Source: Candidatus Woesearchaeota archaeon (GTDB taxonomy: Archaea; Nanobdellota; Nanobdellia; Pacearchaeales; GW2011-AR1). Taken from it: a stretch of 64,000 nt of DNA. Shown one piece after another: positions 35,685-64,000 of the stretch. The notes beneath the pieces were generated by a model. It was not told the origin of the DNA, did not search any database, and saw nothing but the letters and a program-made list of their open reading frames with translations. The stretch's first letter is position 1. Each line of letters starts with the position of its first letter. The position numbers and the translations under genes were made by a program. The stretch lies in the NCBI GenBank assembly GCA_964412025.1, contig CAYPLY010000002.1:33614-97613 (forward strand), given 5' to 3'.

Positions 35685-35732
35685 AGCTAGATCCTCCAAA
35701 ATTAAAATTAAACGATAATAAATACGTAAATA

Positions 35733-35768: not shown

Positions 35769-35793
35769 CTAAGACAAGGGGAAACATAGGGTG

Positions 35794-36695: not shown

Positions 36696-36707
36696 AAACC
36701 GAGTGAA

Positions 36708-37949: not shown

Positions 37950-37969
37950 GGCATTAAATATTAATAAAG

Positions 37970-39565: not shown

Positions 39566-39707
39566 CTTCTTAAAAGTTTAAAATATTAAGACTATTTTTT
39601 GCGAATTATACAACAAGAGTTTTCAAAAACCATAAAATAATAAACGACTCATCTCAAAAGTTTTGTTCTACCCAAGTGTACAAACAAAAATACTTTTTCG
39701 GTAGTTG

Positions 39708-40481
39708 TTATATTGAAAGAATAATTCCTGCGGAGAATAAATTGTTGTCCACTCTTAATTTATATTCTGAGAAATTTGCAGTTGCCCAAGTTGTAGACCA
39801 TCTAAAATCCAAGATAGTTTTTGGAGATAAACGAATGCATGTTCCTAAAGCAACTGAAAATCCAAGACCGTCTCCATTTATGGTATCTTCATACTCTCTT
39901 TCTTTAATAAAAACTGCCTTTGGTCCTATTTCTGTGTAAATTAAAAAAGAATCTTCTTGAAAATCTCCCCAGGAGAACTTTACAAATCCTCCTACCTGAA
40001 AATAATCAAGGGTAACTTCATTCTGCGACTTTGATGCAATGTCAAGGGAAGCTCCAATTTTAAGATGAGCAAATAGCTGTTTTTCGAGACCTGCACCTAA
40101 AGATAAGTTTGTTCCAAAAAAGTCTGAAAGATCTTCATTCCCCCAGATTTGTCCGGAAATCCTCGCGAATAAATCAATATTCGAAGAGGTTGATCTTTTG
40201 ATGTAAGAAGAACTTTCTTCTGAATTAAGTTGAGGGGATAAATCAGGGAATGTTTCAATATTTCCATCCTCATAAACTATGTGAGAGATTTCTGAAATAG
40301 AGATGCTTCTTACGGGGCCTTCAAGAAATTCAATTGGTTTGTACTTAATTGAATTCTCTTGAATTTCAAGAATCTTTACTTTTATCACAGACTTGTCCTT
40401 TTTTATTAAGGATTCCTGAGATAACAAAGAGGTTGTTATAAACATCAACCCCAATATCAGAGAAAAAACTTTTGCTTTCAT
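39708..40481 (-). CDS. Secreted beta-rich protein, outer-membrane-beta-barrel-like
   Basis: Signal peptide; alternating hydrophobic pattern (DLFARISGQIWG, LKIGASLDIA, FSVALGTCIRL, FRWSTTWATANF). Confidence 0.35.
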   Translation of the reverse strand: MKAKVFSLILGLMFITTSLLSQESLIKKDKSVIKVKILEIQENSIKYKPIEFLEGPVRSISISEISHIVYEDGNIETFPDLSPQLNSEESSSYIKRSTSSNIDLFARISGQIWGNEDLSDFFGTNLSLGAGLEKQLFAHLKIGASLDIASKSQNEVTLDYFQVGGFVKFSWGDFQEDSFLIYTEIGPKAVFIKEREYEDTINGDGLGFSVALGTCIRLSPKTILDFRWSTTWATANFSEYKLRVDNNLFSAGIILSI

Positions 40482-47802: not shown

Positions 47803-48222
47803 TTAATTTTTCTTTATACTTAATTTTTCCAGTTTGTCTTGAACATGATTAAATAAAGTAGTTGAAACCAGAGGTTTGTGATTTCCCTCGTGAATTTGTC
47901 CCCCAAATTTGACTTTTCCCACATATGCGAAGTTTCTTAATACCTTTTTTAAGCCGTTAACTGAAAGTCTATGTTTTGAGGCAAGTATTGATAGATTAAT
48001 ATCTGGCTGAAGAAACTCTTCAAAAATCTCCTCTACTTCTCTTGAATTTTGTGCGGGGATTAATATTTTGTCGCGTAAATCCCATTCATACCCAAATGGA
48101 GCTCTAGACATATGCTTCCCTTCTGAAAACTTTTTTATCATACCTTTTTTCTGGGATTCTCCTCTATCTTCTCTGGAATTGTGTTCTATTTCAAACTCAT
48201 GTCCGCATTTTGGGCATTTCAT
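47803..48222 (-). CDS. Zn-ribbon plus serine-recombinase-type 'recombinase' DNA-binding domain protein (no catalytic resolvase domain)
   Basis: CPKCGHEF zinc ribbon; SRAPFGYEW...LRNFAYVGKVKFGG resembles the PFGY-containing recombinase domain of large serine recombinases; 4-nt overlap with the integrase gene. Confidence 0.45.
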   Translation of the reverse strand: MKCPKCGHEFEIEHNSREDRGESQKKGMIKKFSEGKHMSRAPFGYEWDLRDKILIPAQNSREVEEIFEEFLQPDINLSILASKHRLSVNGLKKVLRNFAYVGKVKFGGQIHEGNHKPLVSTTLFNHVQDKLEKLSIKKN

Positions 48223-49052
48223 TTCATAACCTCATCTATGGGGGATTTAATTTTTTTAAGTTCTTCTCTTGAAATATGAGTATATATCTGGGTAGTTGAA
48301 AGGTCACTATGTCCCAACAACTCTTGTATTTTTCTTATATCTGTCCCATTCTCTAAAAGATGGGTTGCAAAACTATGTCTTAAGGTATGACAATGAACAT
48401 CTTTATTTATTCCCGCTCTTTTTCCTGCTTTAGAAATAATCTTTTGAAGATTTCTTTCAGATAATCTTCCTTTTGGTCCCGTAAACAAATATTCTTTTTT
48501 TTCTTCTTTTTGTTTTTCAACTTGAGTCTTTAAATCTTCTAAAAGAAATTCTGGAAGGTTAAACACCCTATCCTTTTTACCTTTTCCCTGACGAACACTT
48601 CCAATTTTCTCCTCGAAATTTAAATCTTTAACTTTTAAATTAACTAACTCTGAAACTCTAAAACCACAAGCATACATAAAAGATACCATGGTCTTAGATT
48701 TTTTTGTATCTATGGAATTGATAAGTGTCTTAACTTCTTCTTTTGTTAGAACAGAAGGTATCCTTTTTTCTTTTTTGGGACGTTTTATACTAAGGGTTAT
48801 ATCTTTATGAAGAATATTTGTGAAAGAGTACCTTATTGCAGAAAGAAAAACTATGATTGAAGAAGAGGAAGCTTCTCCAAGCTTCTCAACAAGATAGGAC
48901 TTTAAGTCGTCTTCATTTATTTCTTGAGGTTCTTTTTTGATATAATCAAGAAATTTTCTGTTACAATCAAGATAATTTCTAAGAGTATATTCAGAGTTCT
49001 TAGATATTTTTAATTCTATTTCAAGTTTCTTTAAAAAATCTTCTGAATTCAT
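48219..49052 (-). CDS. xerA: Tyrosine site-specific recombinase (XerA/XerC/D-like integrase)
   Basis: C-terminal HTLRHSFATHLLENGTDIRKIQELLGHSDLSTTQIYTH (R...HxxR...Y catalytic box); 277 aa. Confidence 0.8.
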   Translation of the reverse strand: MNSEDFLKKLEIELKISKNSEYTLRNYLDCNRKFLDYIKKEPQEINEDDLKSYLVEKLGEASSSSIIVFLSAIRYSFTNILHKDITLSIKRPKKEKRIPSVLTKEEVKTLINSIDTKKSKTMVSFMYACGFRVSELVNLKVKDLNFEEKIGSVRQGKGKKDRVFNLPEFLLEDLKTQVEKQKEEKKEYLFTGPKGRLSERNLQKIISKAGKRAGINKDVHCHTLRHSFATHLLENGTDIRKIQELLGHSDLSTTQIYTHISREELKKIKSPIDEVMK

Positions 49053-49294: not shown

Positions 49295-50257
49295 TTAACT
49301 TCCTGGAGCAACCGTTGCCCCAAAGATTATATTACCTTGACAGGTTCCAGCAACCCCTAAAGGAACGTAAATTCTCCAGTAAGAAGCGTTAATTGCTTCA
49401 TTAAATGTATCATTCTGTCTATAATTCAAATCATATTTTTTAACCACGGGGTAAGAAGTTAAATTGGTATAGTTTGCAACAAATTGGGCAAGATCTAAAA
49501 CTCCGGGATTACTATTGGTTAAATTGTATTTCTCATTCTCTATACTGATATTTTTTATAAAACCAAGCGTACAATTCATTGCATTACCATCTTCCAATGC
49601 AAACCCGTAACCGCTCAAAGAAAGATTAATTTTAACATTTCCATAATTGGTTACATTTGAAACGTTCTCTAGAGAAACTTCTGTTGCATTTACTTCTCCA
49701 TAATAAATAAAATCGGGTAATCCTAAAGCCAACAAACTGGAGATGTTAATAATATCACTTCCATATCCCACCTTATTTTTTGAATCTGATACTTTAAGAG
49801 TACAATTCCAATCTCCTGCATTTGTATAATACCAGATATCCATGCTGCAGTTAATCCATGCTGTATATGTATCGTCTTCAATTATATCACAGGAATAGTT
49901 TGTATAATGATAGTTGTTATCATTTCCATCAATATAAGAAGATGAGACAGAGTCAAAAAATGTAGCAGTTGCATTGTCTATATCTTGCCACCCGTTGAAG
50001 TCCGTAGCTAATCCTGAGCAGTAGATTGTTTTTGTGGAGTTTGGGATAAGTGAAAGAGTGGAATCATTGTTTTGAATCGTAACATTCGTTAGCTCTGGGA
50101 AAACATTCCCCACGGTTAAATTTGTAATTACAGTAACATTGTGTTCTCCCACCCCTGCAAAAACCTCTCCAGGGAGAAAAGAGAATAATATGATGAGTAG
50201 AGCTATCTCTAATAAAATCAAAGATACTACTGTTTTTGTTTTATTTTTTAATATCAT
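49295..50257 (-). CDS. Secreted, sequon-rich (N-x-S/T) cell-surface protein
   Basis: Signal peptide; about 30 N-x-S/T sequons in 320 aa; several Cys. Confidence 0.45.
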   Translation of the reverse strand: MILKNKTKTVVSLILLEIALLIILFSFLPGEVFAGVGEHNVTVITNLTVGNVFPELTNVTIQNNDSTLSLIPNSTKTIYCSGLATDFNGWQDIDNATATFFDSVSSSYIDGNDNNYHYTNYSCDIIEDDTYTAWINCSMDIWYYTNAGDWNCTLKVSDSKNKVGYGSDIINISSLLALGLPDFIYYGEVNATEVSLENVSNVTNYGNVKINLSLSGYGFALEDGNAMNCTLGFIKNISIENEKYNLTNSNPGVLDLAQFVANYTNLTSYPVVKKYDLNYRQNDTFNEAINASYWRIYVPLGVAGTCQGNIIFGATVAPGS

Positions 50258-50258
50258 T

Positions 50259-51008
50259 TTAACCTAACTCAACATAAAGATAATATGCGGTTGATCCCGA
50301 GAATCCTTGTGATCCGTTTTCTGGAACAAGCATCTGGAAATCATATGTATTTCCATCATAACCTACTAAACCGGGTTCTAGGATTGTTGCATAAATAATG
50401 CTAGTTCCATCATACAATGCCATTTCTTCAAAATCATCATCTTGTGTACCATCACTTACAAAAGTGTTTAAAGTGGGGCATTCATTTGCACTAAATGGAG
50501 TTCCCGCGACATAAAATAAATCATGAGTTCCAGTTTGGAAAGTGGTATTTATAGTATCCTGCCTTAAAGAAATATTATGAAACAGCGCCACATCTTCTGT
50601 TGCAAGAGTAGTGGCAACATCTGCACAATCAATTAGATTCCATTCTATTGTCGAGGAATCTCTTGTTGCATAAACTCTTCCGGAAGTTACAGCAAAACTC
50701 CAATCATAAATAGTTGAACCTGCAGAATCATCCAGTGTGAATGCAGCAGTAATCCATCCTACGAAAGCTTTCCAATGAGTATTTTGAACTGTTGCAGACA
50801 AGTTTAATGCTGCAATGTATCCCCCAGAAATATTGAAAAAACCTGCTGCAGTGGTATTCATAGTCTCATTCCAAACAGAGATAACCTCGCTTGGACCTAC
50901 AGGGTCTGCCGCGGATATAAAAATATTTGATGAAACACAAATTGAAAATATTACACTTGCAAATAAGACAAATGCAAATAATGCTCTGTTTTCTCTTTTT
51001 TTAAACAT
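50259..51008 (-). CDS. Secreted protein, divergent member of the 'SWQGYFG...YYFWVELE' paralogue family
   Basis: Signal peptide; shares THDLFY and the C-terminal ...YYLYVELG with the family. Confidence 0.45.
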   Translation of the reverse strand: MFKKRENRALFAFVLFASVIFSICVSSNIFISAADPVGPSEVISVWNETMNTTAAGFFNISGGYIAALNLSATVQNTHWKAFVGWITAAFTLDDSAGSTIYDWSFAVTSGRVYATRDSSTIEWNLIDCADVATTLATEDVALFHNISLRQDTINTTFQTGTHDLFYVAGTPFSANECPTLNTFVSDGTQDDDFEEMALYDGTSIIYATILEPGLVGYDGNTYDFQMLVPENGSQGFSGSTAYYLYVELG

Positions 51009-51079: not shown

Positions 51080-51838
51080 TTACTCTAACTCTACCCAGAA
51101 GTAATAAGTAGTAGTCGAGGTATCTATTAAATGACCATTTTCTAATACAAGCATTTCAAAGTCATGTGCTCTCCCATCAAAACCTAGTGGACTTTCTTCA
51201 TCCAAGATAGATGTAAAAACTACGCTAAGAGTTGTAGGGTCATATAATAAAACTTCCTGGAACATGCTATCTGTTGCATTTTGATTAGATGCAAAGATGT
51301 GTGTACTTGCACACTCTCCTGGAGTGAAATCAATATTGTTTGTATAAAACAAGTCATGAGTGAGACCAAATCCATTCTCATGAGTTCCACCTACAGAGAA
51401 AGTTTCATTAACTCCATCCACATCGTCTGAAGCTATTCCAAACATTGCTTCTAAATCTTCAAAATAAGTTCCAAGTTCAGTTTCTAAACACTTGATTGTA
51501 CCCCATGTAATTGAATCATTGGTAGAGGCATAGATTTCACCCTCTGGAGAAGCCAAAGACCAGTTGTACATAACATTGTCAGCGCTGTCTGCCAATTGGA
51601 TTGTACCTGAAACATTTCCAAAATAACCTTGCCAGGACTGAGTTATAGAAATACCTGTTACCTCAAGTTCAGTGATATTTCCCGCAATAGCAAAATCACT
51701 ATCTGCAGCGGTCGCATTCATCCTTGAACTGGTTAAATTTGTTACGTCTGCACCAAATGGTTCTACAGCCAAAACTGTAAGAGACAAAAATACAATTAAC
51801 AAAATAGAAAATAGAAACAACTTGCCAAATTTACCCAT
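51080..51838 (-). CDS. Secreted protein of the 'SWQGYFG...YYFWVELE' paralogue family
   Basis: Signal peptide; TQSWQGYFGNVSGTIQLAD...YNWSLASPEGEIYAS...HDFEMLVLENGH...TTTYYFWVELE. Confidence 0.5.
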   Translation of the reverse strand: MGKFGKLFLFSILLIVFLSLTVLAVEPFGADVTNLTSSRMNATAADSDFAIAGNITELEVTGISITQSWQGYFGNVSGTIQLADSADNVMYNWSLASPEGEIYASTNDSITWGTIKCLETELGTYFEDLEAMFGIASDDVDGVNETFSVGGTHENGFGLTHDLFYTNNIDFTPGECASTHIFASNQNATDSMFQEVLLYDPTTLSVVFTSILDEESPLGFDGRAHDFEMLVLENGHLIDTSTTTYYFWVELE

Positions 51839-51984: not shown

Positions 51985-54900
51985 TCAAAATATTTCTACA
52001 TAAAATATTGCGGCTTTTGTGTCCGTTGTTCTATACTCTCTTAATTTTGCAGGCACCCTTATCTCATAATCGTACGTACCATATGTTCCCTCTTTATATT
52101 TGTTAATTGGTGAGATAAAAATTAAATCTTCCTTGTCTGCTAAATCAAACTCTCCATTTGTTCCATTTGTGTCATCGGAGTAATCCCACAATATTCCAGT
52201 AATGAAATTAGAATTGTTTGTAGAATTAATTATTGGAACTTCTTGGATTGTATCGTCAAATGAATAAATATCTGAAGTATATTTTGGTGTTCCTGAATTT
52301 GTATATGTAGAGTAGACAGAGTCAGTATATAGTGTTGAATTTAGTAGAGTGTCTACTTCCTCGAAATCTGAAGCACTATCTGCGTTTAATTTTGTTTTTC
52401 CCAGAGATTGTAAGGTTCCCCAAGAGATATAAGAATCATAATCTGTGATGTAAACATTTCCTTGATTGAAATTTTCTGTACTCCAATTCGTTAATTTAAG
52501 TTCCAAAGAATCTGCAAGAACTAAATTACTAGATGATAAAACATCTCCGTAAAAAAAGTGCCAAGAACCTATACTTATACTTCTACTTGCCTTGTTATTT
52601 GATTCATTTAATTCAATAAAACTTCCGTTTGTTGATAAAGGAGGATCAACAACTACAAAGATTTCTGATGGTCCCATCTGTGAAGACCAATCTTTGGTGA
52701 TATTTATCTGACTAAACATAGAAAGATTTGTATATATATCTGAACCAATTTTAACCCCTCCCAAATCTGGATCTCCCTCGTAAAAGCTGATAGTTACATT
52801 TCCAATATCTACTCCTGCAAGATTATGTATTGTTGCAGTTATCTTTATAACTTGATTTTCTTTTGGATTTGAATTATTAAAAAATATTTCTGATGAATTA
52901 ACAAAAAAGTCTGGATAAGTAAGGTTAAATTTTCTCAATTCGCTTATATTTGTATTTTTCATTTGGTCCCAACAAGTAACATTCCAGGAGTGTTCTCCCT
53001 GTCCCAATACGGAAGTAAGAACATATTCTCTTTTTGAAATATTGCTTGTCACCCAAACATTAGGCCTTCTTACTATTCCATCTATGGTTAGATTACATTG
53101 AAGAATATTATCCAAAACATCTATTGCTGTCCAATTAAAATAAACTCTGTCTTCATTGAAATCTATGCCAGAATTATTTTCTGGAGAGTTCAAAATTATT
53201 AAAGGAGGAGAGAAATCCATGGAGAAATATTTGTGAGTTGCATTTGCATATGAAGGGATAGGATTATTTGTATCAAAACATCCCACCGTCCAATTATGTA
53301 ATCCTTCTGTTATACCCGAAATAGTAAAATTAGGATTTATAATTAATTGAGCAGAAGATTTTGATTCATTTGGAACATCGTCTATGTATAAAGTACAATT
53401 GTTGATTATCTGTGCATCTTCTGCTAAGTAGTGGAAAGTGACTGAACTACCAAAACCATAAAAATCATCATCGGGGGTATAAAGAGTGATCTGAGGAGGA
53501 GCATATACTGTAAAATTTCTTGTTTCACTTGTGTTGGAATTCTCAGCATTGTCTATACATTCGATTGTCCAATTGTAACTTCCATCATCCAACAAATACG
53601 GGTATATTTCTGGAGTTGAATTTTCTGCAATAACTTGATCATAAAAAATATCATTGATGAAAATACTACAAGAGATGTTTTCATTTAAATTGTCTTCCAC
53701 TGTAAAATTAAATAAAACTTCATTCCAATCTAAGGTTTCGTTTGGTTCAGGAAAGTTAAGAACAATATTTGGTGCTTCTGTGTCTATGTATAACGTCCTA
53801 TTTTCATCGCTACCCATTACTCCTAAAGAATCTACACAATAAACATTCCAGGTATAATTCCCTTGAGGAAGAACCTCATTGAAATAATTAGAATTATCGT
53901 TAATTATAGGTGTGGAATTAACAGCTACAAAAGAATCATCTATGTATAATGAACAATTAACAATGTCCTCTTCATATTTGTAAGCATAGTACTCAAATTC
54001 TATTTCTGTATAATTAATCCATAAATCAGGTTCGGGAGATATCAGAATAACTTCGGGTGGAGCAAAAGTAGTAAATGATCTTGTTTCGCTTGTATTTAAA
54101 TTTCCAGATAAATCCGAACAAGAAACATTCCAAAGATGTTCTCCTGAGATTAAATCCCTTGTAATCAAATTTATGCTATTATTTTCTAAAATTAAAGGAG
54201 TTATATTATTATCTACAGTAAAATTACATGTTAAATTTTGTGCAAGGTTATCTCTAGCTGTAAAGTTAAAAGTTATTTGTGAAGAATAAATTACCTCTTC
54301 ATCTTCGGGGTAAGTTAATTCTATTTGTGGAGAGGAATTGTCTCTATAAAAGAATCGTGTTTCTGAATTGTTTTGTAACCCATATGTATCAAAACATCTT
54401 ACATCCCAGCTATAAAAACCATCAGATAAATCGGTTATTGAAAAATTTGTTAATTGATTGTTTAATGGAGAGTGAGCTACATCTTTGAAAGAATTATTTA
54501 TGTAAAGAGAACAATTCGAGAGATTAGTGTTATCTGAAGGAGTGTATTGTAATAAAATATTTTCTTTAAACCAAGTTAAATTTTCTGTAATTAAAGAAAT
54601 CTTTGGAGATTCTCTAATGGTTATCTCTCTATTTTCACTGATATTATAATGTCCTGCAGAATCTACGCAACTTACATTCCAAACTTTTAAACCATCTGTT
54701 AATCCAATTATAGGTCTGCTTGTATTTGCATTTCTTGTTACAACTATATTATTATCATATTTCTCACCTACGCTTAAATTACAAATTAGCTCTGAATCAA
54801 GATTATCTGTAGCATTAAAATAAAAACTTAAATAAGAGGATTGTGAAATTGTTGAAGTCTCTGGATTTAAGAGATAAACAATAGGGTTTTGTGTATCTAC

Positions 54901-57900
54901 ATAAAAAGATCTTGTAGAAGCAAGTGTACTATATCCTCCATTATCGGTTATGTTAACTGTCCAATTATAAAATCCATCTTGAAGCGAGAGTGTAAAATTG
55001 TTGTATGCTTTATTAATAATTAGGGATTGGTTCGATTGGTTGTATGTTCCATTTAAATATAAATCTGCAACATTTAAGTCATTGTTGTCAGAGGCATTAT
55101 AAATAAGAGTAACTAATGAAGTATTAAACCACCAATAATTAGAGGTTATCAAAAATATTTCTGGAGGAACATCATCTATATTAAAATGGAATGTTTCACT
55201 TGTATGGCTCCTTAAAGAATTATCAAAACATGTAACATTCCAATAATGTGTTCCAACGTTTAAGTAACCAGAATTATAACTTGCATTTGTTCCATTTTCA
55301 ACATAAACTCCGGAGTGAATTGTTTTTCCATCTAATATAACATTACAACTAAGATTTAAATCCATATTATCTGTTACATTAAAAACTAAATTTAAATTAT
55401 TTACAAGGTTGTTTGCTCCATCTTCAGGATAAATTAATTTAACAAATGGATTTTCTAGATCAACATAAAATATCCTTGTTTCATTTGAAGCTGCTTCTAA
55501 ATTAGTCCTATCTGTGGCATTAACACTCCAATTATAAATTCCTTGCCCAAGAAAGATTGTAAAATTATTAACTGCATTATTTGTTATTGCAGATTGGTTT
55601 GTTTGATTTTTTTGCCCATTCAGGATTAATGTTGAATTTGCAAGATTGTCATTTAAATCAGAAACATTGTAATAAAGAACTACTTGAGATGAATTAAACC
55701 AAGTTAAATTGGTTGGAGAAGTTAAATTTACGCTTGGAGGAGTTGCCCCCGCAGAAGTTACCGTTACAGGGTTTGTTGTTGTCCCATTATAATTATCATA
55801 TGTTCCAACTGAAATACATCGGATATTGTTGTCTGAAGAATAAGCATTCCCTCTTATAACAAATGTAGTGTTTTGAGAAACATTTGTTACATTCCCTAAA
55901 TAATGGGGATTAGTTTCTCCTGAGTTTAAAATAAGATTTCCTGAAGAACCTATATTGACCCATCCTGAAGTTGAAGTGTTTCTTTGAATGTACACATTAA
56001 CATTTCTGCAAGTTCCAAAAGAACAATTAACTTCGCATGTTGCCTCGAAAGTGTCTTCTTGGGGAACATATGGATCAACTAAGGGGGAAACTAAGTCTGT
56101 ATGTAAAAATCCTTCTGTAGTTAAATTAACAACAACATAGGAGTTTGTTCCTGAATCCCAAGTATGAGTTAATACTTTATCTTTATTATGAGTATTATAT
56201 GCATTAATAACTAATTTTAGTCTATCACTTTGTCCCAAATAGATATCTCTATCTATACAAGTAGTGTTTGTTCCTGATGCTGCATTTTCAAAAATACCGC
56301 TATTTGCATCATTCCCTAGTTGACATATTAAAGTATCTGTTCCCCCCCTAGAAACATAAAGTTTCCAAGTTATTGCAATCTTTCCCGCAGGGGTTGAAGA
56401 GCTAAATGTTCCAGAAAAACTAATAGGGGTTCCAGAAGGGATAACAGCCCCATTATATCCCATATATTGGGAAGTTGCACTAACTATATTTGCTAATCCT
56501 CCTGCACCAATATCAAATATAACAGAATTCGTTGTTGCATCCTGGGTGCTTTTTAATTTTATTTCTGCTAAAGTATTTCTGGAAGGATTAAATGTTGAAC
56601 TTTCATATAATGTTCCTGTAAATAATTCGGGGGTTATAGAGACATTTATTGTCCTATTTTGGCTGAACCCTGTTCTACCTCCTTCATCAACACATGAAAC
56701 ATACCAAGTGTATATTCCATTATCTAAGAATTCATTGAAGGTCATATTTGAATTTTTTGTTATTGAATACTCTGTTTTCTTTAATTGATTGTTTATATAT
56801 AAAGAACAATTCTCAACTGAAGATAAATCAGAAACATTATACACAAAATATAAATTATCATCGCTTGTTATTGTAGAAGAGTTTGGAGGGTAAATTAAAT
56901 TAATTATTGGAGCAGCTAAATCAAATGAGAATGTATAATTATTTGCTCCAAAAAAACATCCATTAGAAGAGTCACAGCATTGTATATTCCATATATAATC
57001 TCCAGAAGAGGAATAAGTTTTGTTTATATAATTAAAAGTGTTATTAAAAATTGTGGATTGATTTGTTAAATTTCTATGCCAACTTCCAGTTGAATTGTCC
57101 CACAAACTGCAATTCAAAAAAGTAGCAGAAGAAATTGGAGTAAAATTAAAGACAACATTTTGGGAATAAAGAATATCTGTGGTTATGGGGGTTCTTAAAA
57201 GAACTTCAAATGCTCCTGTTTCATAAGTACTATAACTTATCCGCATATATCCTGCTGCTCCTGCTCCTCCACTAACTGATCCTCCTGAACCTTTTCTTCC
57301 TCCTCCACCTCCTCCACCATAAGTATTACCTGGATTTCCTGAGCCAGTTGTTGTTCTTCCTGCACCCCCATCTCCTCCTAATTCGGGGGTTCCTGTTCCT
57401 GCTGTACCCACACTTGCATTTCCTCCAATTCCTGTTGAACCTGCTCCTCCACCTCCTGCACCAGAGAATGTAGAATTAGCAGTTCCCCCTTCTCCACCCA
57501 TATAAATCAAATCTCCTATTGAATTTGTAACACTTCCTCCTTCTCCTCCTGTTCCTGCACTTAACCCTCCACTTCCTCCGGCAGCATATAACTCTGAACC
57601 ATCTCCAAAGTAAGTAGGATTTCCCGAGGCTCCATTTCCAGAAGTTCCTGCAACGCTTGTTCCTACAACAAGGGTATAATTTTGATAAGGAGTAACTGAG
57701 AAGGTTTTTTTAGCATAAGCTCCTCCTCCTCCACCTCCTGCAATTCCTCCACCTCCTGCGGGCCTTCCTCCTCCTGCTCCTCCTCCTCCCCAGGCTTCAA
57801 CAGTAATTTCATAAACTCCTGCTGGAACCATCCAGGTTGTACTTGAAGTAAAGTTCTCTAAATAGTAAGTATAAGGATCAAGAATATGGTCAAATTCAAC

Positions 57901-59298
57901 ACCTCCTCCAACAACTCTTAAATCGAAAGTATCTTGAATATCTGAGATTAAATTTGTTAAATAAATTTTATTGTACTCATCTGAAACTAAGGGAGTGAAT
58001 TCTGCAATTTTTATATCTGAATTAAATTCATAGACTTCAACTACTGGATTTCCACTTATAATTCTCGGAAAAATAGTTATATCTCTTTTATTGTCTAAAG
58101 GAACTTCAAAAGTTACTCTCACATAATCTCCATCTGAGATTTCTTCAGACCAGATATTATCTAATTCCTTAACTTCATTGTAAATATCTGAGATAAATTC
58201 CTTACTTGAAGAGAGATGGTCTGCCTTAGTTATAATAATTATCTCAAATGTTTGTTCGGATAAATGGGGTACAATCCATTCAACATAATCAATTAGTCCG
58301 TTATTGTTTGTGTCTTTTGCCTCAAAATTAAGATAAATTCCTTCCTCTTTCCAATAAATCTTTATGAAATCCTCCTGCCCAGTAGAAACTCTCTCAGGTA
58401 TTGAAGTGTAAGATAAAACATTCTCATAATGTACGTCCTCTTGAGAATAAACAATAACCTCTTTTTTATTTTCAGAGATATTCTTCTCCTCTATCTTTGG
58501 GGGCTCCGTAAAATATTCTAAGCTAAGATCCTCGGAGGGAGTTTCTCCAAGGTTTATAAATTTCTTTCCCTCAATCTCAACAATGTCATAATTAACAAAA
58601 ACCTCCCCATTTTCTTTTTTCAACTCTAATCCTATAGTGTTTGGAATCTCAATTAAACTAAGAGAATCTGCTTCCTTTACAAGCTTATTCCAAATTACTG
58701 GCTTGCCAATTTCTGCTTTTCCTTGGATTAAGCCTTGTTGAGAAGGAGAGTTTACTGAAAATTGATAATATTTAATTGCGTTTCCTCTTTCAAAACGTAC
58801 AGAATAAACTCCTTCCTCTAATAAATCAAAAAAGAATATATCATTGGAAGAAACCCTTGAGGATCTCTTTCCTGAGGGAGATAGAATTAATAATTCATAA
58901 TTTCCAAGTCCGTTAAAATTGAATTTCAGAGTATCCCAAAGAAGATAAGAGTTATCTGTTTCAAAATCAAATAAGATATAATCTTCTCGATTTGAGTTAA
59001 CCTGAAACTTTAATCTCTCAGAATAATCTTCTGATTTTATCTCGACTATATATTCTCCTACTTCAGTGAACTTTAGAGAAAGTTTATCCTCACAAACCTC
59101 CTGAACAATTATTTTTGAAGGGGCCTTAATTTTTAAAGAACAGGGGTTATATTTTGTTAAATCAATCTTTACTTCTTCTCCAAGAGAATAAGATTCTGCA
59201 GTAGAGGCTGAGCTGAATAGGGAAGAGAATATAAGGGCAAGCAATAAGACAAAAATTAAAATAATTACACCTATTTTTATAGCTCCTTTTTTGTTCAT
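51985..59298 (-). CDS. Giant (2,437 aa) secreted cell-surface protein: N-terminal beta domains, Gly-rich domain, at least 12 tandem ~95-aa Ig-like sequon-rich repeats
   Basis: Signal peptide; TWMVPAGVYEITVEAWGGGGAGGG...Gly-rich block (aa ~480-690); repeats with conserved P.I.L..P...C.L....N.S.F...DG.Y.W.V.C.D; ends ...AIFYVEIF. Confidence 0.6.
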   Translation of the reverse strand: MNKKGAIKIGVIILIFVLLLALIFSSLFSSASTAESYSLGEEVKIDLTKYNPCSLKIKAPSKIIVQEVCEDKLSLKFTEVGEYIVEIKSEDYSERLKFQVNSNREDYILFDFETDNSYLLWDTLKFNFNGLGNYELLILSPSGKRSSRVSSNDIFFFDLLEEGVYSVRFERGNAIKYYQFSVNSPSQQGLIQGKAEIGKPVIWNKLVKEADSLSLIEIPNTIGLELKKENGEVFVNYDIVEIEGKKFINLGETPSEDLSLEYFTEPPKIEEKNISENKKEVIVYSQEDVHYENVLSYTSIPERVSTGQEDFIKIYWKEEGIYLNFEAKDTNNNGLIDYVEWIVPHLSEQTFEIIIITKADHLSSSKEFISDIYNEVKELDNIWSEEISDGDYVRVTFEVPLDNKRDITIFPRIISGNPVVEVYEFNSDIKIAEFTPLVSDEYNKIYLTNLISDIQDTFDLRVVGGGVEFDHILDPYTYYLENFTSSTTWMVPAGVYEITVEAWGGGGAGGGRPAGGGGIAGGGGGGAYAKKTFSVTPYQNYTLVVGTSVAGTSGNGASGNPTYFGDGSELYAAGGSGGLSAGTGGEGGSVTNSIGDLIYMGGEGGTANSTFSGAGGGGAGSTGIGGNASVGTAGTGTPELGGDGGAGRTTTGSGNPGNTYGGGGGGGRKGSGGSVSGGAGAAGYMRISYSTYETGAFEVLLRTPITTDILYSQNVVFNFTPISSATFLNCSLWDNSTGSWHRNLTNQSTIFNNTFNYINKTYSSSGDYIWNIQCCDSSNGCFFGANNYTFSFDLAAPIINLIYPPNSSTITSDDNLYFVYNVSDLSSVENCSLYINNQLKKTEYSITKNSNMTFNEFLDNGIYTWYVSCVDEGGRTGFSQNRTINVSITPELFTGTLYESSTFNPSRNTLAEIKLKSTQDATTNSVIFDIGAGGLANIVSATSQYMGYNGAVIPSGTPISFSGTFSSSTPAGKIAITWKLYVSRGGTDTLICQLGNDANSGIFENAASGTNTTCIDRDIYLGQSDRLKLVINAYNTHNKDKVLTHTWDSGTNSYVVVNLTTEGFLHTDLVSPLVDPYVPQEDTFEATCEVNCSFGTCRNVNVYIQRNTSTSGWVNIGSSGNLILNSGETNPHYLGNVTNVSQNTTFVIRGNAYSSDNNIRCISVGTYDNYNGTTTNPVTVTSAGATPPSVNLTSPTNLTWFNSSQVVLYYNVSDLNDNLANSTLILNGQKNQTNQSAITNNAVNNFTIFLGQGIYNWSVNATDRTNLEAASNETRIFYVDLENPFVKLIYPEDGANNLVNNLNLVFNVTDNMDLNLSCNVILDGKTIHSGVYVENGTNASYNSGYLNVGTHYWNVTCFDNSLRSHTSETFHFNIDDVPPEIFLITSNYWWFNTSLVTLIYNASDNNDLNVADLYLNGTYNQSNQSLIINKAYNNFTLSLQDGFYNWTVNITDNGGYSTLASTRSFYVDTQNPIVYLLNPETSTISQSSYLSFYFNATDNLDSELICNLSVGEKYDNNIVVTRNANTSRPIIGLTDGLKVWNVSCVDSAGHYNISENREITIRESPKISLITENLTWFKENILLQYTPSDNTNLSNCSLYINNSFKDVAHSPLNNQLTNFSITDLSDGFYSWDVRCFDTYGLQNNSETRFFYRDNSSPQIELTYPEDEEVIYSSQITFNFTARDNLAQNLTCNFTVDNNITPLILENNSINLITRDLISGEHLWNVSCSDLSGNLNTSETRSFTTFAPPEVILISPEPDLWINYTEIEFEYYAYKYEEDIVNCSLYIDDSFVAVNSTPIINDNSNYFNEVLPQGNYTWNVYCVDSLGVMGSDENRTLYIDTEAPNIVLNFPEPNETLDWNEVLFNFTVEDNLNENISCSIFINDIFYDQVIAENSTPEIYPYLLDDGSYNWTIECIDNAENSNTSETRNFTVYAPPQITLYTPDDDFYGFGSSVTFHYLAEDAQIINNCTLYIDDVPNESKSSAQLIINPNFTISGITEGLHNWTVGCFDTNNPIPSYANATHKYFSMDFSPPLIILNSPENNSGIDFNEDRVYFNWTAIDVLDNILQCNLTIDGIVRRPNVWVTSNISKREYVLTSVLGQGEHSWNVTCWDQMKNTNISELRKFNLTYPDFFVNSSEIFFNNSNPKENQVIKITATIHNLAGVDIGNVTISFYEGDPDLGGVKIGSDIYTNLSMFSQINITKDWSSQMGPSEIFVVVDPPLSTNGSFIELNESNNKASRSISIGSWHFFYGDVLSSSNLVLADSLELKLTNWSTENFNQGNVYITDYDSYISWGTLQSLGKTKLNADSASDFEEVDTLLNSTLYTDSVYSTYTNSGTPKYTSDIYSFDDTIQEVPIINSTNNSNFITGILWDYSDDTNGTNGEFDLADKEDLIFISPINKYKEGTYGTYDYEIRVPAKLREYRTTDTKAAIFYVEIF

Positions 59299-59299
59299 C

Positions 59300-59533
59300 T
59301 TATTTCTTAATCTCCCAAAGATTTATTCTTCCAACCCTAAACCCATTTAGTTTATTGCTTAACTGTAATCTCAAGCAGCGCGTTTGAATAGAATGCCAGG
59401 GCTTACTTATCTCATCGGCTATCTCTTGGGTGGATTTTGGATTAACTGAATTTGAAAGACATTTAACAATCTCCCCTTCAAGTAAATCCTCTTTTTTGCG
59501 ATTAATCGTACGATTAATCATCCTTTTAACCAT
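59300..59533 (-). CDS. Small winged-helix transcriptional regulator
   Basis: 77 aa; LEGEIVKCLSNSVNPKSTQEIADEISKPWHSIQTRCLRLQ HTH-like; its stop abuts the giant gene's start. Confidence 0.45.
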   Translation of the reverse strand: MVKRMINRTINRKKEDLLEGEIVKCLSNSVNPKSTQEIADEISKPWHSIQTRCLRLQLSNKLNGFRVGRINLWEIKK

Positions 59534-59590: not shown

Positions 59591-60958
59591 TCAATAAATC
59601 TCTACAGCGAATTTCCCCTTATTTAAAACATATGTGGAATAATAAATATATTTGTTATCTTCATTATAAAAATCAAGAAAAACAGGTTTATTTTTATAAA
59701 AAAGCTGCAGGGTTTTATTCTTTTCTACTTTGAATATTAAAAAGATATCTTCAATATCGTTTTGGGGCATACTGGAAAGTATTGTAAATGATCTTTTATT
59801 GTTCCTGCCTCTCGTATTCTCTTCAAACTTGACATTGGAATGGGATTTTGATATATTTTTATTGGGAAATATAGCAACAATGTTTAGATACCCTTCGCTG
59901 TAGTTAAAAACTATGGGTTCATCTGGAGAGGCTCTTTGTGCAACCACTTTATTGAAATAACCTTCCTTTATATCTTTAGCTTTATGAAAAGGGATCAACT
60001 TAGTTCTAAACACTCTTAATTTAGTTGATTTATTTTGGTTATACATAGATTGATAAAATTGATAATCTGTTTTTAAAAGGACTTCTGGACTTATGAAACT
60101 ATAATTGATTGAAAACTCTTTTTGATTATCTATACTTTCTTTTAATATATTGTGTGTTTCACTAAAGTCTCCAGAGAAAAGATTATCTAAAGAGTCCCAT
60201 TCTGATGAAAAATAAAGCAAAAAATCCCCGGATACAGGATGCGAAGAGCTAAAAGCAGAGGTAAATATAATGTCTTCATTGGAAGGAATATAAAAAAACT
60301 CTCCTCTAAAATAACATTTATCACAAATGACATTATTTTTAATATTAAAATAATCTAAGTTATAAAAAACTAATTTTTCAGATATTTCTCTTTTACCATA
60401 AGAAATAAGAGTTAACTCATTTTCTCCCTTTTCCAATTCTATTGGAATTAAAACTTCGTTGCAGTTCTCACAAAAATGTTGATATATTTGTTTATTTGAA
60501 CTTTTAAGAGAGTAATTTAAACTGTTATAATTGCTTGCGAGAGAGAGATTTAAGTAAATATTGGATTGGTTTACAAAGATTCTCCCAGAGGGAGAATGTA
60601 TGTAGATTGCTTTTTGAGGATTTAACTGTGGAAATATTTCGTATCCCTCCCCGGTTATTACCAAGCTAACAGACTCAGATATAATCCCTAATTCTTCGTC
60701 AAAAACCTCTGCATAAATTTCATCCCCGAATGTAAAATTTCCTAGTTCTTCAATATCACAGCAAAATTTGTTCTCTGGGTTAATTTTACAACTAGCGGTC
60801 TTTAGGGGTTTTTCATCTTCATAAATTAAAACGTTTCCCCAAGAAGAAGAAAACTCTTCTGAATCGGAAACTATGCCACAAGCAAAATTGGATGAAATAA
60901 AAGATAAACTAAAAAGCACACCTGCAAAAAATACAAAAATAAAACAATATTTATTCAT
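59591..60958 (-). CDS. Secreted sequon-rich protein ending in ...KFAVEIY
   Basis: Signal peptide begins at the internal Met (MNKYCFIFVFFAGVLFSLSFISSNFA); the track ORF extends to 61045 but overlaps the upstream gene; many N-x-S/T. Confidence 0.4.
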   Translation of the reverse strand: MNKYCFIFVFFAGVLFSLSFISSNFACGIVSDSEEFSSSWGNVLIYEDEKPLKTASCKINPENKFCCDIEELGNFTFGDEIYAEVFDEELGIISESVSLVITGEGYEIFPQLNPQKAIYIHSPSGRIFVNQSNIYLNLSLASNYNSLNYSLKSSNKQIYQHFCENCNEVLIPIELEKGENELTLISYGKREISEKLVFYNLDYFNIKNNVICDKCYFRGEFFYIPSNEDIIFTSAFSSSHPVSGDFLLYFSSEWDSLDNLFSGDFSETHNILKESIDNQKEFSINYSFISPEVLLKTDYQFYQSMYNQNKSTKLRVFRTKLIPFHKAKDIKEGYFNKVVAQRASPDEPIVFNYSEGYLNIVAIFPNKNISKSHSNVKFEENTRGRNNKRSFTILSSMPQNDIEDIFLIFKVEKNKTLQLFYKNKPVFLDFYNEDNKYIYYSTYVLNKGKFAVEIY

Positions 60959-60992
60959 AAGTGTAGTAAAATAATGAAGTATAAAAGATTTT

Positions 60993-62093
60993 CTAACTAT
61001 CTGCAAGATGGATAAATTCCTCCTCTGTGGTCCTAGATTTTGCAAGAATAGCTATTGCAAAAAGAACTATTGCCCCCCCAAAAATGGAAAAGAAACCAGA
61101 AATATTTGTAGAAAATCCTAAGTCCAGAAAATCTTCATATGAAATTAAAATATTAAATCCAATTATTAATAAAGATATTTCTTTCATAAAAGTACCTCCT
61201 CCAAAAAAGAACAGCAATGCGATTAAAAGAGGAAGAAATATCCCCCCAAATATAATCATATTTAAAGAGCCCACACTATTGTTGCAGATAATTTCTGTAT
61301 GAGGTAGGCCCCCTTCATATATAATTCTTTCCAAATCGCAATTCGGATTTGTTTTGGAAATCAAAAAATGTCCTCCTTCATGGATTGTTAGAACTCCTAT
61401 AAAAATAAAGTTGGTTAATATTATTATAAAAACAAAATAACGTAAAAAATCAAAGAAATAATTATTATGCTTAAACTTTAAAGTTCTTCTCTCAAAAAAA
61501 TACTTTGGTAGTTTTTTCAAATCTAAGAAAAAGAAGAAAAGAAAAATTATGAAGAATGTATTGGATATTAAACTAACAATTGGAGAAAATTCTTTCTGGA
61601 AGAAAATAAGTACTTGTAAAAATAGCGACATCGAAGAGTAAAGTATAGCAAATTTAGAGGACCTCCCAAAATTAGGAGAAGGTATCATTAATATGAAAAG
61701 AACCATTATAAGGAATAATGAAGAGATTACGAGAAAGTTAGAGAAATCTATTCCTATAAGGACAGACAAGATAAATACCCCGTGAATTGAAAGAAGATAA
61801 AAAATCTTTTTGCTTTTTCTTATTGAGTAAATTATCGCCAGCAATAAAATTGATTCAATAAATAATACAATAGAATGAATGAATAGTAAATCTAAGGAAT
61901 TATATTTTTCCAGATTGAAAATCCAAGAAAATAAAACTAAAGAAAGCAAGATAAATACCCCCCCCAATAAAAAAAACAAAAAGAATATCTTTTTAGTATG
62001 CTGGTCACTGTAATATTTAACAAATTTAAAGATAAGGAAAATAGATATTCCTAGAGAGATTATAAGATTTAATATAAGCAAAAGTTTTATCAT
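60993..62093 (-). CDS. Polytopic membrane protein with HExxH zinc-metalloprotease motif (M50/site-2-protease-like)
   Basis: At least 9 TM helices; TIHEGGHFLIS inside a hydrophobic segment; later DFLDLG. Confidence 0.4.
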   Translation of the reverse strand: MIKLLLILNLIISLGISIFLIFKFVKYYSDQHTKKIFFLFFLLGGVFILLSLVLFSWIFNLEKYNSLDLLFIHSIVLFIESILLLAIIYSIRKSKKIFYLLSIHGVFILSVLIGIDFSNFLVISSLFLIMVLFILMIPSPNFGRSSKFAILYSSMSLFLQVLIFFQKEFSPIVSLISNTFFIIFLFFFFLDLKKLPKYFFERRTLKFKHNNYFFDFLRYFVFIIILTNFIFIGVLTIHEGGHFLISKTNPNCDLERIIYEGGLPHTEIICNNSVGSLNMIIFGGIFLPLLIALLFFFGGGTFMKEISLLIIGFNILISYEDFLDLGFSTNISGFFSIFGGAIVLFAIAILAKSRTTEEEFIHLADS

Positions 62094-62226: not shown

Positions 62227-62928
62227 TTATTCTAATTCTACCCAAAAGTAATAGGTAGTTGTTGCAATATCTGATCCATGGCCGTCTTCCAATACTATCA
62301 TCTCGAAATCGTGAGGGTTGTTATCAAATCCGTTTGCATCTTCTAACAACAATGATGCAAATATTAGACTTTCGCCATCTGTTAATAAAACCTCGTTGAA
62401 AGTTCCTACTCCTGCACTGTTAAATAACAACGTATTATCACACATTCCAGTTGTGAATTGTTTGCTATTGGAAAAAAACTCGGGATGATTATTAAGACCA
62501 AATGTTTCGTTTATACCATCGGCATCGTCCCATTCAATTCCGAACATGTTCTCAAAGTATGTCATGTTATTTGTTTCATCATAACATTGAATCCCGTCCC
62601 AAACAACACCTGAAGCGTTTGATGCATAGATTTCACCCTCTGGAGAAGCAAGAGACCAGTTATACAAGACATTATCCGAAATATCTGCTAATTGTATTGA
62701 ACCTGAAACATTACCAAAATAACCCTGCCAAGATTGAGTTACGGATGTTGCAGTGATTTCAAGTTCTGTAACATTTCCTGCATAAGCAGAAGTATTCCCT
62801 GCATCACTAGTGTTCATTCTTGTACTAGTAAAATTAGTTACATCGGCACCAGTAGGAAGAGCGGAAACTAACATGGGCAACAACAATATCAAAAAGAATA
62901 CCCAAATAAAATTAATGATTTTCTTCAT
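62227..62928 (-). CDS. Secreted protein of the 'SWQGYFG...YYFWVELE' paralogue family
   Basis: Near-identical motifs to the 51080 gene (TQSWQGYFGNVSGSIQLAD, YNWSLASPEGEIYAS, TTTYYFWVELE). Confidence 0.5.
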   Translation of the reverse strand: MKKIINFIWVFFLILLLPMLVSALPTGADVTNFTSTRMNTSDAGNTSAYAGNVTELEITATSVTQSWQGYFGNVSGSIQLADISDNVLYNWSLASPEGEIYASNASGVVWDGIQCYDETNNMTYFENMFGIEWDDADGINETFGLNNHPEFFSNSKQFTTGMCDNTLLFNSAGVGTFNEVLLTDGESLIFASLLLEDANGFDNNPHDFEMIVLEDGHGSDIATTTYYFWVELE

Positions 62929-63547
62929 CTTTTTTACCTCCTTTCAGCTCTATACTTTTTTTTAAAAAAATAGGACATCTATGTACTATGAAAAGAGAGG
63001 AGAGATTCAGATTAGTTATTTCTTCAAGGGAATGGAACTCAAAATTTACTTTATCTTCATGCTTTTTTGAAAGAGCTTCTATGGCTTGCTGAGTCTTTTT
63101 ATCTTCTAGAAATATAATTATAGAATGGTTTGACTTTTTTGGGTCAACAAAAATTGCATTGATATCCTTAAAAACATCTTTAACTCTGTATAACAAATTT
63201 TCTAATATATTCTGGAGATGTTTATTTTCTAAAAACCATGTTCTCAACATAGACTTTTGATAATCGTCTAGGTTCAGAGATTTCTTCTCCCCAAAACCAT
63301 TTGACAACATTACAGAATATGAAATGTCTTTTGAGATTGAAAATAGATTCCTTGGTTTTCCTTTTTCAAATGCCCCTGTTTTTTCTTTAGAAACAATCTG
63401 CGCAGCTTCAAGCAGTTTTAACTGTTGACTGATAAAAGAAACTGTTGTTTTCGTTTTTTCAGCAATTTCTATTGGAGAAGAAGGCCTTTCTGAAATTATT
63501 TTTAGAATTTCCCATCTAGGTGAGGCTAGAAACGAATCGAGTTCCAT
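62912..63547 (-). CDS. ArsR/winged-helix family transcriptional regulator with extended C-terminal domain
   Basis: LASPRWEILKIISERPSSPIEIAEKTKTTVSFISQQLKLLEAAQIV HTH; overlaps the start of the downstream paralogue gene by 17 nt. Confidence 0.5.
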   Translation of the reverse strand: MELDSFLASPRWEILKIISERPSSPIEIAEKTKTTVSFISQQLKLLEAAQIVSKEKTGAFEKGKPRNLFSISKDISYSVMLSNGFGEKKSLNLDDYQKSMLRTWFLENKHLQNILENLLYRVKDVFKDINAIFVDPKKSNHSIIIFLEDKKTQQAIEALSKKHEDKVNFEFHSLEEITNLNLSSLFIVHRCPIFLKKSIELKGGKKDEENH

Positions 63548-63722: not shown

Positions 63723-64000
63723 TTACTCTAACTCTACCCAGAAGTAATAAGTGGTGGTAGAAGTATCTGTTAAATGTCCATTTTCTAATACAAGCATCTC
63801 GAAATCGTGAGGGTTGTTATCAAAACCAAAAACATCTTCATTTAGAAGAGAGGCAAAAACAACGCTATATGTTGTAGGTTCATATAACAAAACTTCTTCA
63901 AATTTATTGTCTTCTCCCTGACCTGCATCGCTAAATACTTGAGTATTCCTACACTCTCCCTCTCCAAACTCCAAATTGTTTGTATAAAAAGTGTTATGTC
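63723..64000 (-). CDS. Secreted paralogue-family protein, 5'-partial (N-terminus lies beyond the window end)
   Basis: Frame open to base 64000; ...HNTFYTNNLEFGEGEC...HDFEMLVLENGH...TTTYYFWVELE aligns with the C-terminal half of the 51080 and 62227 genes. Confidence 0.5.
   Translation of the reverse strand, partial: HNTFYTNNLEFGEGECRNTQVFSDAGQGEDNKFEEVLLYEPTTYSVVFASLLNEDVFGFDNNPHDFEMLVLENGHLTDTSTTTYYFWVELE

Follow-up and report, generated by a model that had tools for sequence, protein, structure and literature searches.

Within a 64,000-nucleotide (nt) stretch of the genome of a Candidatus Woesearchaeota archaeon (GenBank assembly GCA_964412025.1, contig CAYPLY010000002.1, positions 33,614 to 97,613; hereafter the window), we analysed a minus-strand gene for a 366-aa membrane protein with an HEGGH motif. 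Judged by family profiles, the protein belongs to a new, deeply divergent subfamily of the M50/site-2 protease (S2P) clan (clan MM) that is fused to an N-terminal module of seven transmembrane (TM) helices. The gene is part of a conserved cluster, confined to DPANN archaea, that encodes exported proteins, and our preferred reading, to which we assign a probability of roughly 0.55, is that this two-domain, 11-helix S2P-type protease is the dedicated maturation enzyme of the cluster. The gene and its parts were mapped to the window as follows.

60993-62093, minus strand: gene for the 7-TM plus M50-like membrane metalloprotease, 366 aa (open reading frame (ORF); stop codon TAG at 60993-60995)
61494-62093, minus strand: N-terminal 7-TM bundle, aa 1-200, family-specific (modelled helices within aa 2-193)
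60996-61460, minus strand: C-terminal M50/S2P-like catalytic domain, aa 212-366 (C-terminal profile A3, hhalign, Pfam)
61368-61382, minus strand: HEGGH, with H238, E239 and H242 as putative zinc ligands (two) and catalytic base (translation, conservation)
61284-61340, minus strand: beta-hairpin CDLERIIYEGGLPHTEIIC between invariant C252 and C270 (structural model, alignment)
61116-61160, minus strand: second motif GFNILISYEDFLDLG with invariant D321 at nt 61131-61133 (alignment)

The ORF and its HEGGH motif (aa 238-242), both reported in an initial annotation of this DNA, are real, and their coordinates were confirmed by translation. The motif had been described as embedded in a hydrophobic segment, and in the AlphaFold2 (AF2) model it does sit in a long helix at aa 212-248. 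The count of at least nine TM helices also holds, since the AF2 model and hydropathy give 11 membrane helices. From the protein's own composition (8 His, 13 Glu) an HExxH would be expected by chance 0.006 times; among the 65 window ORFs with 100 aa or more, 3 carry the motif, so that alone it proves little and conservation has to settle the matter.

A word-indexed search through 5.8 billion proteins brought up a list of 50 relatives at 36-98% identity. A near-identical family member, P0001, is present only on a contig of 1.7 kb. Using an exhaustive search of cluster representatives, the family was found to comprise 184 representatives at 50% identity, 137 of them with an E-value of 1e-10 or better; nearly all members are 345-400 aa long and none of these carries an annotation. 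To determine conservation, 113 full-length members were aligned (mean column identity 25%; the most distant member is 17% identical to the query). Just six columns of this alignment are invariant, namely H238, E239, H242, C252, C270 and D321, while G241, G284 and W57 are each more than 90% conserved (W57, at 91%, lies in a predicted outer loop). Around the hairpin, the two cysteines are found in 113 of 113 members, T266 in 100 and E267 in 90. The second motif reads GFNxxxSYxD (G312-F313-N314-x-x-x-S-Y-x-D321) and places D321 about 83 residues past H238; D321 is kept by all 113 members, G312 by 98, F313 by 95 and N314 by only 60. Since all catalytic residues are invariant, the protein is most likely an active zinc endopeptidase. 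H238 and H242 would bind zinc, E239 would serve as the base and D321 is the presumed third zinc ligand. Several longer family members (P0116, P0120, P0129, P0131, P0138 and P0145; 450-484 aa) have a C-terminal cytoplasmic extension of about 100 aa, which in two of them weakly matches DUF5752 (E=0.001 and 0.03).

The relationship to M50 proteases becomes visible at the level of the family. The window protein alone had no match in Pfam, NCBIfam or PHROGs, even at E=1. When the 113 members were scanned singly against Pfam, 50 matched PF02163 (Peptidase_M50; best E=8.4e-6), 23 matched PF13398 (Peptidase_M50B-like; best E=4.9e-8) and seven matched DUF3267 weakly. One member, P0116, lies above the PF13398 gathering score (26.4 bits versus 26), and the matched stretch always runs from the HExxH helix to about 100 residues beyond it. 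The profile of the C-terminal domain alone (A3, 38 sequences) had the S2P of M. jannaschii (3b4r_A) as its best PDB match (E=1.3e-6; profile positions 8-94 versus residues 32-116), followed by E. coli RseP, B. subtilis SpoIVFB and an Aquifex S2P. In the search of 5.8 billion proteins, all A3 matches outside its own family carry PF13398 and/or PF02163. A comparison of A3 with a canonical M50 outgroup using hhalign gave a probability of 98.1% and E=1.2e-13 over 87 columns, and the confident region covers the HExxH helix, the hairpin and the next TM helix and ends before the second motif. PDB profile searches with full-length alignments returned nothing or spurious low-complexity matches; they were uninformative because the N-terminal 7-TM part dominates those profiles. 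The M50/S2P-like assignment proposed earlier is therefore right at the family-profile level, as the Pfam scans of individual members, the 3b4r_A match and the hhalign result agree. A CPBP-type protease had been offered as the other model; the window protein did not match PF02517, nor is that family among the matches listed for the family members scanned (sets of 22 and 113), and the motif is HExxH instead of the EExxxR and FxxxH of CPBP proteases. The same sets gave no Pfam match to M48, another family that had been considered, and the peptidase matches of the PDB profile searches are all S2Ps.

Two elements of the catalytic domain could be compared with canonical proteases in detail. The hairpin stretch aligns to the post-HExxH segment of the M. 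jannaschii S2P in the A3 profile match, and on this alignment the Cys-bounded hairpin is the likely counterpart of the S2P edge strand, or membrane-reentrant beta element. In a relaxed hhalign run, the FNL of the second motif pairs with the FNLLP of canonical M50 proteins. The LDG-like second zinc-ligand motif that the initial annotation had suggested looking for is probably present in a degenerate form: the invariant D321 is in place, but the motif lacks the prolines of canonical FNLLPxxPxDG and has one residue fewer between Asn and Asp. The proposed core would consist of an HExGH helix, a Cys-stapled hairpin as the edge-strand equivalent, a G...P helix and a GFNxxxSYxD helix.

An AF2 model of the protein was obtained from 22 homologues (predicted local distance difference test score (pLDDT) 80.3, predicted template modelling score 0.67). 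Seven helices between aa 2 and 193 are followed by the long HEGGH helix (212-248), two strands (252-260 and 263-270) and helices at 274-298, 301-324 and 329-364. The catalytic domain (aa 212-366) is thus made up of the HExxH helix, then the beta-hairpin, then three more membrane helices. The N-terminal 7-TM module has no detectable sequence-family relatives. In a Foldseek search of the PDB with the whole model, the N-terminal bundle weakly matched proteins resembling G-protein-coupled receptors and microbial rhodopsins, the latter including bacteriorhodopsin with target-normalised template modelling scores of 0.54-0.61 and E of about 1. The rhodopsin-like matches reach a probability of 0.98 at 10-15% identity, and a profile search touched archaerhodopsin-2 at E of about 1. 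This similarity probably reflects generic seven-helix geometry.

The membrane orientation was predicted with the positive-inside rule, using the mean number of Lys and Arg residues per loop over the 113 sequences. The means were 3.5, 0.4, 2.2 and 0.4 for loops 1-2, 2-3, 3-4 and 4-5; 2.1, 0.5 and 5.3 for loops 5-6, 6-7 and 7-8; and 2.1 for the hairpin (with 4.0 Asp and Glu), 1.3 for loop 9-10, 0.3 for loop 10-11 and 4.4 for the C-terminal tail. By the positive-inside rule, this sharp alternation between loops predicts an N-out/C-in topology, in which the HExxH helix would run from inside to outside and the motif, the hairpin and D321 would lie at the outer face. The active site is accordingly predicted to face outward, inverted with respect to canonical S2Ps. 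Nine canonical M50 outgroup proteins, counted in the same way, gave 0.3 on the N-terminal side of the HExxH helix, 5.1 on its C-terminal side and 5.8 past the Asp motif. This control recovers the accepted cytoplasm-facing M50 arrangement, in agreement with published descriptions of RseP and of the M. jannaschii enzyme (PMC9401612). The invariant Cys pair around the hairpin fits an extracytoplasmic disulfide, and it has parallels among the products of the cluster, where the exported WVELE-domain proteins (see below) have an invariant Cys pair and an exported 455-aa protein is Cys-rich. We found no description of an inverted S2P-clan arrangement in the papers searched.

The best PDB sequence match, the M. 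jannaschii S2P (MjS2P; MJ0392, PDB 3B4R; MEROPS M50B, group III S2P), is archaeal like the window protein. In both, a TM helix ends in the HExxH, a beta element and a Gly/Pro helix come next, and an Asp ligand (presumed in our protein) lies about 85-95 residues downstream. The window protein differs from MjS2P in having an extra N-terminal 7-TM bundle and no CBS domain, in its shorter, proline-free second motif, in the conserved Cys pair around the hairpin and in its predicted membrane orientation, which is opposite; it also falls short of the Pfam thresholds. Outside the family, the closest sequences are those of uncharacterised short M50 proteins with PF13398/PF02163, many of which share a 'GC' after the HExxH helix. 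These proteins differ in size (190-290 aa, 4-6 TM helices), have a canonical FNLLPxxPxDGG and are not linked to the cluster. RseP and SpoIVFB would share the catalytic chemistry and the 3-TM core with the window protein, but they have PDZ or CBS domains, active sites close to the cytoplasm and sigma-factor-linked type II TM substrates, and no such feature was found here.

The following neighbouring genes were assigned to the cluster in the window.

63723-64000, minus strand: 3' part of one more WVELE-domain gene, truncated at the window edge (262 aa in the related locus L003, at 1498-2286)
62912-63547, minus strand: ArsR/HVO_A0114-type helix-turn-helix (HTH) regulator, 211 aa (Pfam HTH_5, 1.9e-6)
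62227-62928, minus strand: p233, an exported 233-aa WVELE-domain protein, immediately upstream of the protease (hidden Markov model (HMM), AF2)
59591-60958, minus strand: exported Cys-rich 455-aa protein, 34 nt downstream of the protease (orthologues follow the M50-like gene in L001-L012)
59300-59533, minus strand: basic winged-helix-like 77-aa protein, conserved between the 455-aa and giant-protein genes (weak HTH_12 match)
51985-59298, minus strand: giant exported protein, 2437 aa, with Gly_rich_2 and Ig-like Big_13/Big_7 domains (Pfam)
51080-51838, minus strand: 252-aa WVELE-domain paralogue, 54% identical to p233 over the full length (HMM E=6e-104)
50259-51008, minus strand: 249-aa WVELE-domain paralogue ending ...YYLYVELG, 30% identical to p233 (HMM E=1e-77)
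49295-50257, minus strand: exported 320-aa protein ending ...CQGNIIFGATVAPGS, weakly similar to the giant protein's Ig-like repeats

Related loci were collected by scanning one genome per species, and all ORFs in the loci were searched with HMMs. The scan yielded 18 loci, every one from a metagenome-assembled genome of Woesearchaeota, Pacearchaeota or unclassified DPANN; among them, L003 shows 100% identity to the window. Wherever an M50-like locus extends far enough upstream, it has between one and three WVELE genes no more than 8 kb upstream of the M50-like gene, and this pattern persists to 31% identity. The loci without a WVELE gene (L011, L014 and L015) are each ended by a contig end. A reverse search that started from WVELE homologues on long contigs found the M50-like gene in L021 and L023, while L022 and L024 stop just short of its expected position; the fifth locus of this search has a 364-aa gene at that position, known from a gene listing without the DNA. 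Co-occurrence of the protease with the motif-bearing proteins, which the initial annotation had proposed as a check, is thus seen in every informative locus, whichever of the two genes is taken as the start. It supports a functional link, not a sortase mechanism.

Gene order is conserved as well. In the clade of the window the order is a HerA-like ATPase (about 1120 aa), a 107-aa protein, a 285-aa coiled-coil protein, a 262-aa WVELE protein, the ArsR-like HTH protein, a 233-aa WVELE protein, the 7-TM M50-like gene, the 455-aa protein, the 77-aa winged-helix protein, the giant protein and further WVELE paralogues. The ArsR-like regulator is present in nearly all related loci, and two small coiled-coil proteins of the cluster are predicted to be cytoplasmic. 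In distant versions of the cluster, an exported 320-390-aa protein ending ...CQGNI[IV]FGA... is encoded directly upstream of the M50-like gene (L012, L013, L014 and L016-L020), and its stop overlaps the M50-like start in L014, L016, L017 and L020; kinship of these proteins with the 320-aa protein of the window was inferred from the C-terminal motif only. The overlap that had been claimed for the window itself, between the protease stop and the start of a 484-aa neighbour, is an artefact of a longest-ORF call extended to a TTG at 61045, inside the protease gene. All orthologues of this neighbour begin at an ATG equivalent to 60958 and have a signal peptide, which yields the 455-aa protein and a spacer of 34 nt after the protease TAG; orthologous loci have an identical 34-nt spacer.

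The ATPase gene lies just past the right edge of the window in the source genome and was seen at L004:2064-5459 and also in L001, L005, L007-L010 and L021. Its product consists of a first TM segment (TM1), an ectodomain of about 600 aa with WVELE-like and CarboxypepD_reg domains, a second TM segment (TM2) and a cytoplasmic HerA domain. An extracellular subunit-like domain on the ATPase is an unusual architecture for the HerA/FtsK superfamily. Two type I membrane proteins occur in distant versions of the cluster and are absent from that of the window. One, p398 (L016:5472-6668, L020:5454-6644, L013:5089-6297), is exported and has a C-terminal P-[IL]-[IV]-Y followed by a TM helix and a basic tail (KIRKERKLY...); the other, p725 (L016:6665-8842), has a TM segment and a cytoplasmic coiled coil. 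Both resemble sortase-type or S2P-type substrates more closely than the WVELE motif does.

The WVELE domain is the common element of the cluster's exported products. The 233-, 252- and 249-aa proteins are full-length paralogues (30-54% identity); their family has more than 701 members, every one of them hypothetical and of DPANN origin. The initial annotation had seen a shared C-terminal motif in the cluster, and the true set of motif-bearing proteins consists of the 230-260-aa proteins ending ...YY[FL][WY]VEL[EQG] and the giant protein (...FYVEIF). The WVELE proteins have 26 invariant columns across the mature region, including a Cys pair, HDFEM and the terminal YYFWVELE. In the AF2 model, p233 is beta-rich (pLDDT 77) and residues 227-232 form its last strand; the mean pLDDT over residues 221-233 is 77-80, below that of the domain core. 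After the motif, the WVELE proteins and the giant protein end within 0-1 residue, with no TM helix and no basic tail. The last approximately 190 aa of the giant protein (nt 51988-52566) are a divergent WVELE domain. The giant protein is related to p233 in blastp (E=2e-4), and WVELE HMM positions 66-235 align to its aa 2244-2435 with 14.8-19.9 bits, with the landmarks SWxxFG, NWS, xDxE and FYVEI coinciding. The WVELE HMM also matches residues of about 60-246 of the HerA-like ATPase (E=1e-5 to 1e-7), where the motif strand lies inside the ectodomain (...ERYYFFTDPYD...). Because conservation extends over the whole domain, the motif is modelled as its last strand, no tail follows and the ATPase has an internal copy, the VELE motif is the terminal beta-strand of a shared WVELE domain of about 190 aa, not a detachable sorting signal. 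The VEIY end of the 455-aa protein, which had been counted as an instance of the motif on the 484-aa version, does not belong to it, since orthologues end ...NILIY, ...KVNIF, ...IIKSR, ...SLKID or ...KIIDR.

The model of the WVELE domain had no significant Foldseek match in the PDB or BFVD, and there was no sequence match in the PDB; the fold may or may not be of the pilin, TasA or cannula type. Directly past the signal peptide, the WVELE proteins (p233 aa 23-55 and its paralogues) have an A-x-x-P-x-G-A in which Pro and Gly are invariant. The stretch of about 30 residues that follows is conserved and yet disordered in the AF2 model (pLDDT below 50). The xPxGA region could be a processing site and/or, as in donor-strand-exchange fibres, a donated N-terminal strand. 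The Gly_rich_2 domain of the giant protein lies near its N-terminus, and orthologues of this protein vary greatly in size, from 2457 aa (L007) to more than 5200 aa (L001). A type IV prepilin-like signal on the giant protein (MNKKG/AIK...) was considered and rejected, as it has Lys/Arg at +3 and an ordinary ...SSAS signal-peptidase-I site is found past the hydrophobic core. No Pfam family matched the 455-aa protein. It and its orthologues in L001-L012 have a conserved [SN]-F-[AV]-C-G past the hydrophobic core of the signal peptide and many further cysteines; this element could be a lipobox-like site, though an atypical one, or else just the leading Cys of an ectodomain rich in disulfides.

If the protein is the dedicated maturation protease of the cluster, its substrate would be an exported or membrane-anchored product of the cluster, cleaved at or close to the outer leaflet while a surface structure is being assembled, and the C-terminal ...VELE strand would stay in place. 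A candidate cleavage region lies around the invariant xPxGA of the WVELE proteins, whose conserved but disordered first approximately 30 mature residues are as expected for a strand donated to a partner. The tightly coupled p320-type proteins are other candidate substrates, as are the N-out/C-in anchors (TM2 of the ATPase, p398 and p725), which have the orientation expected for an inverted S2P core. The processing role put forward in the initial annotation thus stays plausible as a dedicated function for cluster proteins, but not at their shared C-terminus. There is precedent for an operon-dedicated S2P-clan protease that matures a co-encoded exported product: TmcP (DUF3267/PF11667) is the leader peptidase of the TMcin pathway for a ribosomally synthesised and post-translationally modified peptide, and it acts on a co-encoded membrane-embedded precursor (PMC13252029). 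As an operon-encoded dedicated maturation protease, TmcP is the best functional analogy, although it is bacterial, has 4 TM helices and processes a small TM peptide, compared with 11 TM helices and large beta-rich candidate substrates here. The operon logic of exported subunits with a membrane peptidase of their own is also seen in SipW, a type I signal peptidase (a Ser protease) encoded beside the fibre subunits TasA and TapA that it matures; its fold is unrelated to that of the window protein.

Several observations weigh against a dedicated maturation protease. Our analysis identified neither a substrate nor a cleavage site. The signal peptides of the cluster proteins are all of the ordinary Sec type and have plausible signal-peptidase-I sites, so that no special protease is obviously required, and p398 and p725, the proteins best suited to an inverted S2P core, are missing from the version of the cluster found in the window. 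The outward orientation is a prediction from the positive-inside rule. In addition, the position equivalent to the substrate-clamping Asn of RseP (N394; PMC9401612) is Asn in just 60 of 113 members and the prolines of the second motif are absent, and a Foldseek search of the PDB with the whole model gave weak 7-TM matches only, with no S2P in the top 50.

Four other explanations were weighed against these data. The proposal that the enzyme is a sortase-like peptidase that recognises and removes or processes the shared C-terminal [FYW]xVE[LI] motif could draw on the strict synteny with motif-bearing proteins and on the predicted outward-facing active site, which could reach exported proteins. 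S2Ps such as RseP moreover bind their substrates by edge-strand addition (PMC9401612), and the motif is a beta-strand. The archaeosortase ArtA/PGF-CTERM, exosortase/PEP-CTERM and rhombosortase/GlyGly-CTERM systems, to which the motif had been likened, similarly link a polytopic enzyme genomically to exported proteins that share a terminal feature, and the predicted active site of ArtA also faces outward (PMC4343526). Substrates in those systems, however, have a tripartite arrangement of motif, TM helix and basic tail, whereas no TM tail is present in the window's cluster, and the enzymes use Cys/Arg or Ser/His where the window protein would be a zinc enzyme. The window protein has no exosortase/archaeosortase or rhomboid family match in NCBIfam or Pfam. 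As the motif closes a globular domain that is conserved throughout, is itself modelled as a strand, recurs internally in the ATPase and is not preserved in the 455-aa orthologues, a C-terminal signal of the sortase type is not supported and we regard this explanation as very unlikely. A non-protease role, in which the protein is a 7-TM scaffold or platform subunit of an assembly machine and the metal site is kept for another purpose, would account for the degenerate substrate-clamping Asn and prolines and for the lack of a structural S2P match to the whole model. It is hard to reconcile with H, E, H and D being invariant over deep divergence, given that the catalytic Glu is dispensable for metal binding alone, and we consider it highly improbable.

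Regulated intramembrane proteolysis offers a different account, in which an anchored component is cut upon a signal sensed by the 7-TM domain and the cleavage, together with the two HTH proteins, switches on cluster assembly or expression. The candidate targets are TM2 of the HerA-like ATPase and, in related clusters, p398 and p725. Signalling is what S2P-family proteases canonically do (PMC9401612). The cluster has two conserved HTH proteins, fusion of the protease to a 7-TM module suggests sensing or gating, and the N-out/C-in TM segments of the ATPase (TM at 680-705), p398 and p725 would match an inverted core. Neither HTH protein has a TM segment, though, no anti-sigma-like or membrane-tethered regulator was found in the cluster, and the clade of the window does without p398 and p725, all of which makes this account doubtful. 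A housekeeping function, as a signal-peptide peptidase or in membrane quality control, would consist of clearing the leftover signal peptides of abundant exported proteins. Sec-type signal peptides are present on all cluster products, and RseP-type S2Ps, which degrade remnant signal peptides, provide a parallel. Signal peptides are N-in/C-out, however, and so match canonical S2P cores rather than inverted ones; the gene is so far confined strictly to the cluster, and a conserved gene order with translational coupling to specific neighbours over 31-100% identity argues for a dedicated function. We therefore judge a housekeeping role to be quite unlikely.

Elsewhere in the window, a run of small proteins with bacterial-style lipoprotein signals (...LALGAGC, ...ITINGC, ...IAISC and ...LFTGC) is encoded on the minus strand at 35014-40481 and 42900-44963, and one of these proteins has CBM96 and CarbopepD_reg_2 domains. 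Adjacent to the run are genes for a protein weakly resembling an outer-membrane beta-barrel (PF13505 at a sub-threshold E=1.7e-4) and for another HerA/DUF87 ATPase, this one soluble and 687 aa long. This gene content is unusual in a DPANN archaeon; horizontal transfer, a mobile element or a chimeric contig could account for it. At 47803-49052, also on the minus strand, lie the genes for a tyrosine recombinase (Phage_integrase, E=8e-50) and, next to it, a 139-aa protein with a Recombinase domain. They adjoin the distal end of the surface-protein cluster (at 49295), which may border a mobile or variable region.

The enzyme class described here is known, whereas the subfamily, its 7-TM fusion, its likely inversion and its genomic context are unannotated in the libraries searched. 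The literature search found no paper specifically on this cluster or on DPANN S2Ps, and the functions of archaeal site-2 proteases are essentially unknown (PMC4343526). The family offers a concrete context for such a function, since it is locked into one conserved cluster of exported proteins. If the inverted orientation is true, an S2P core can work from the outer leaflet. The cluster, with its HerA-like ATPase, paralogous beta-rich subunits and adhesin-like protein of 2,400-5,200 aa, is widespread in Woesearchaeota and Pacearchaeota and unannotated, and it is a candidate surface apparatus of host-dependent archaea. A more far-reaching possibility, which we put forward tentatively and at well below even odds, is that the protein is the founding member of an outside-facing S2P class that matures a HerA-ATPase-driven surface filament or adhesin assembly of DPANN archaea, with WVELE proteins as the polymerising subunits and the giant protein as the tip adhesin, which would join the filament through its C-terminal WVELE domain. 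Interest in the protease would rise if the cluster proves to be a new DPANN surface-assembly system, and, if this is true, the system could be how DPANN episymbionts hold on to their hosts.

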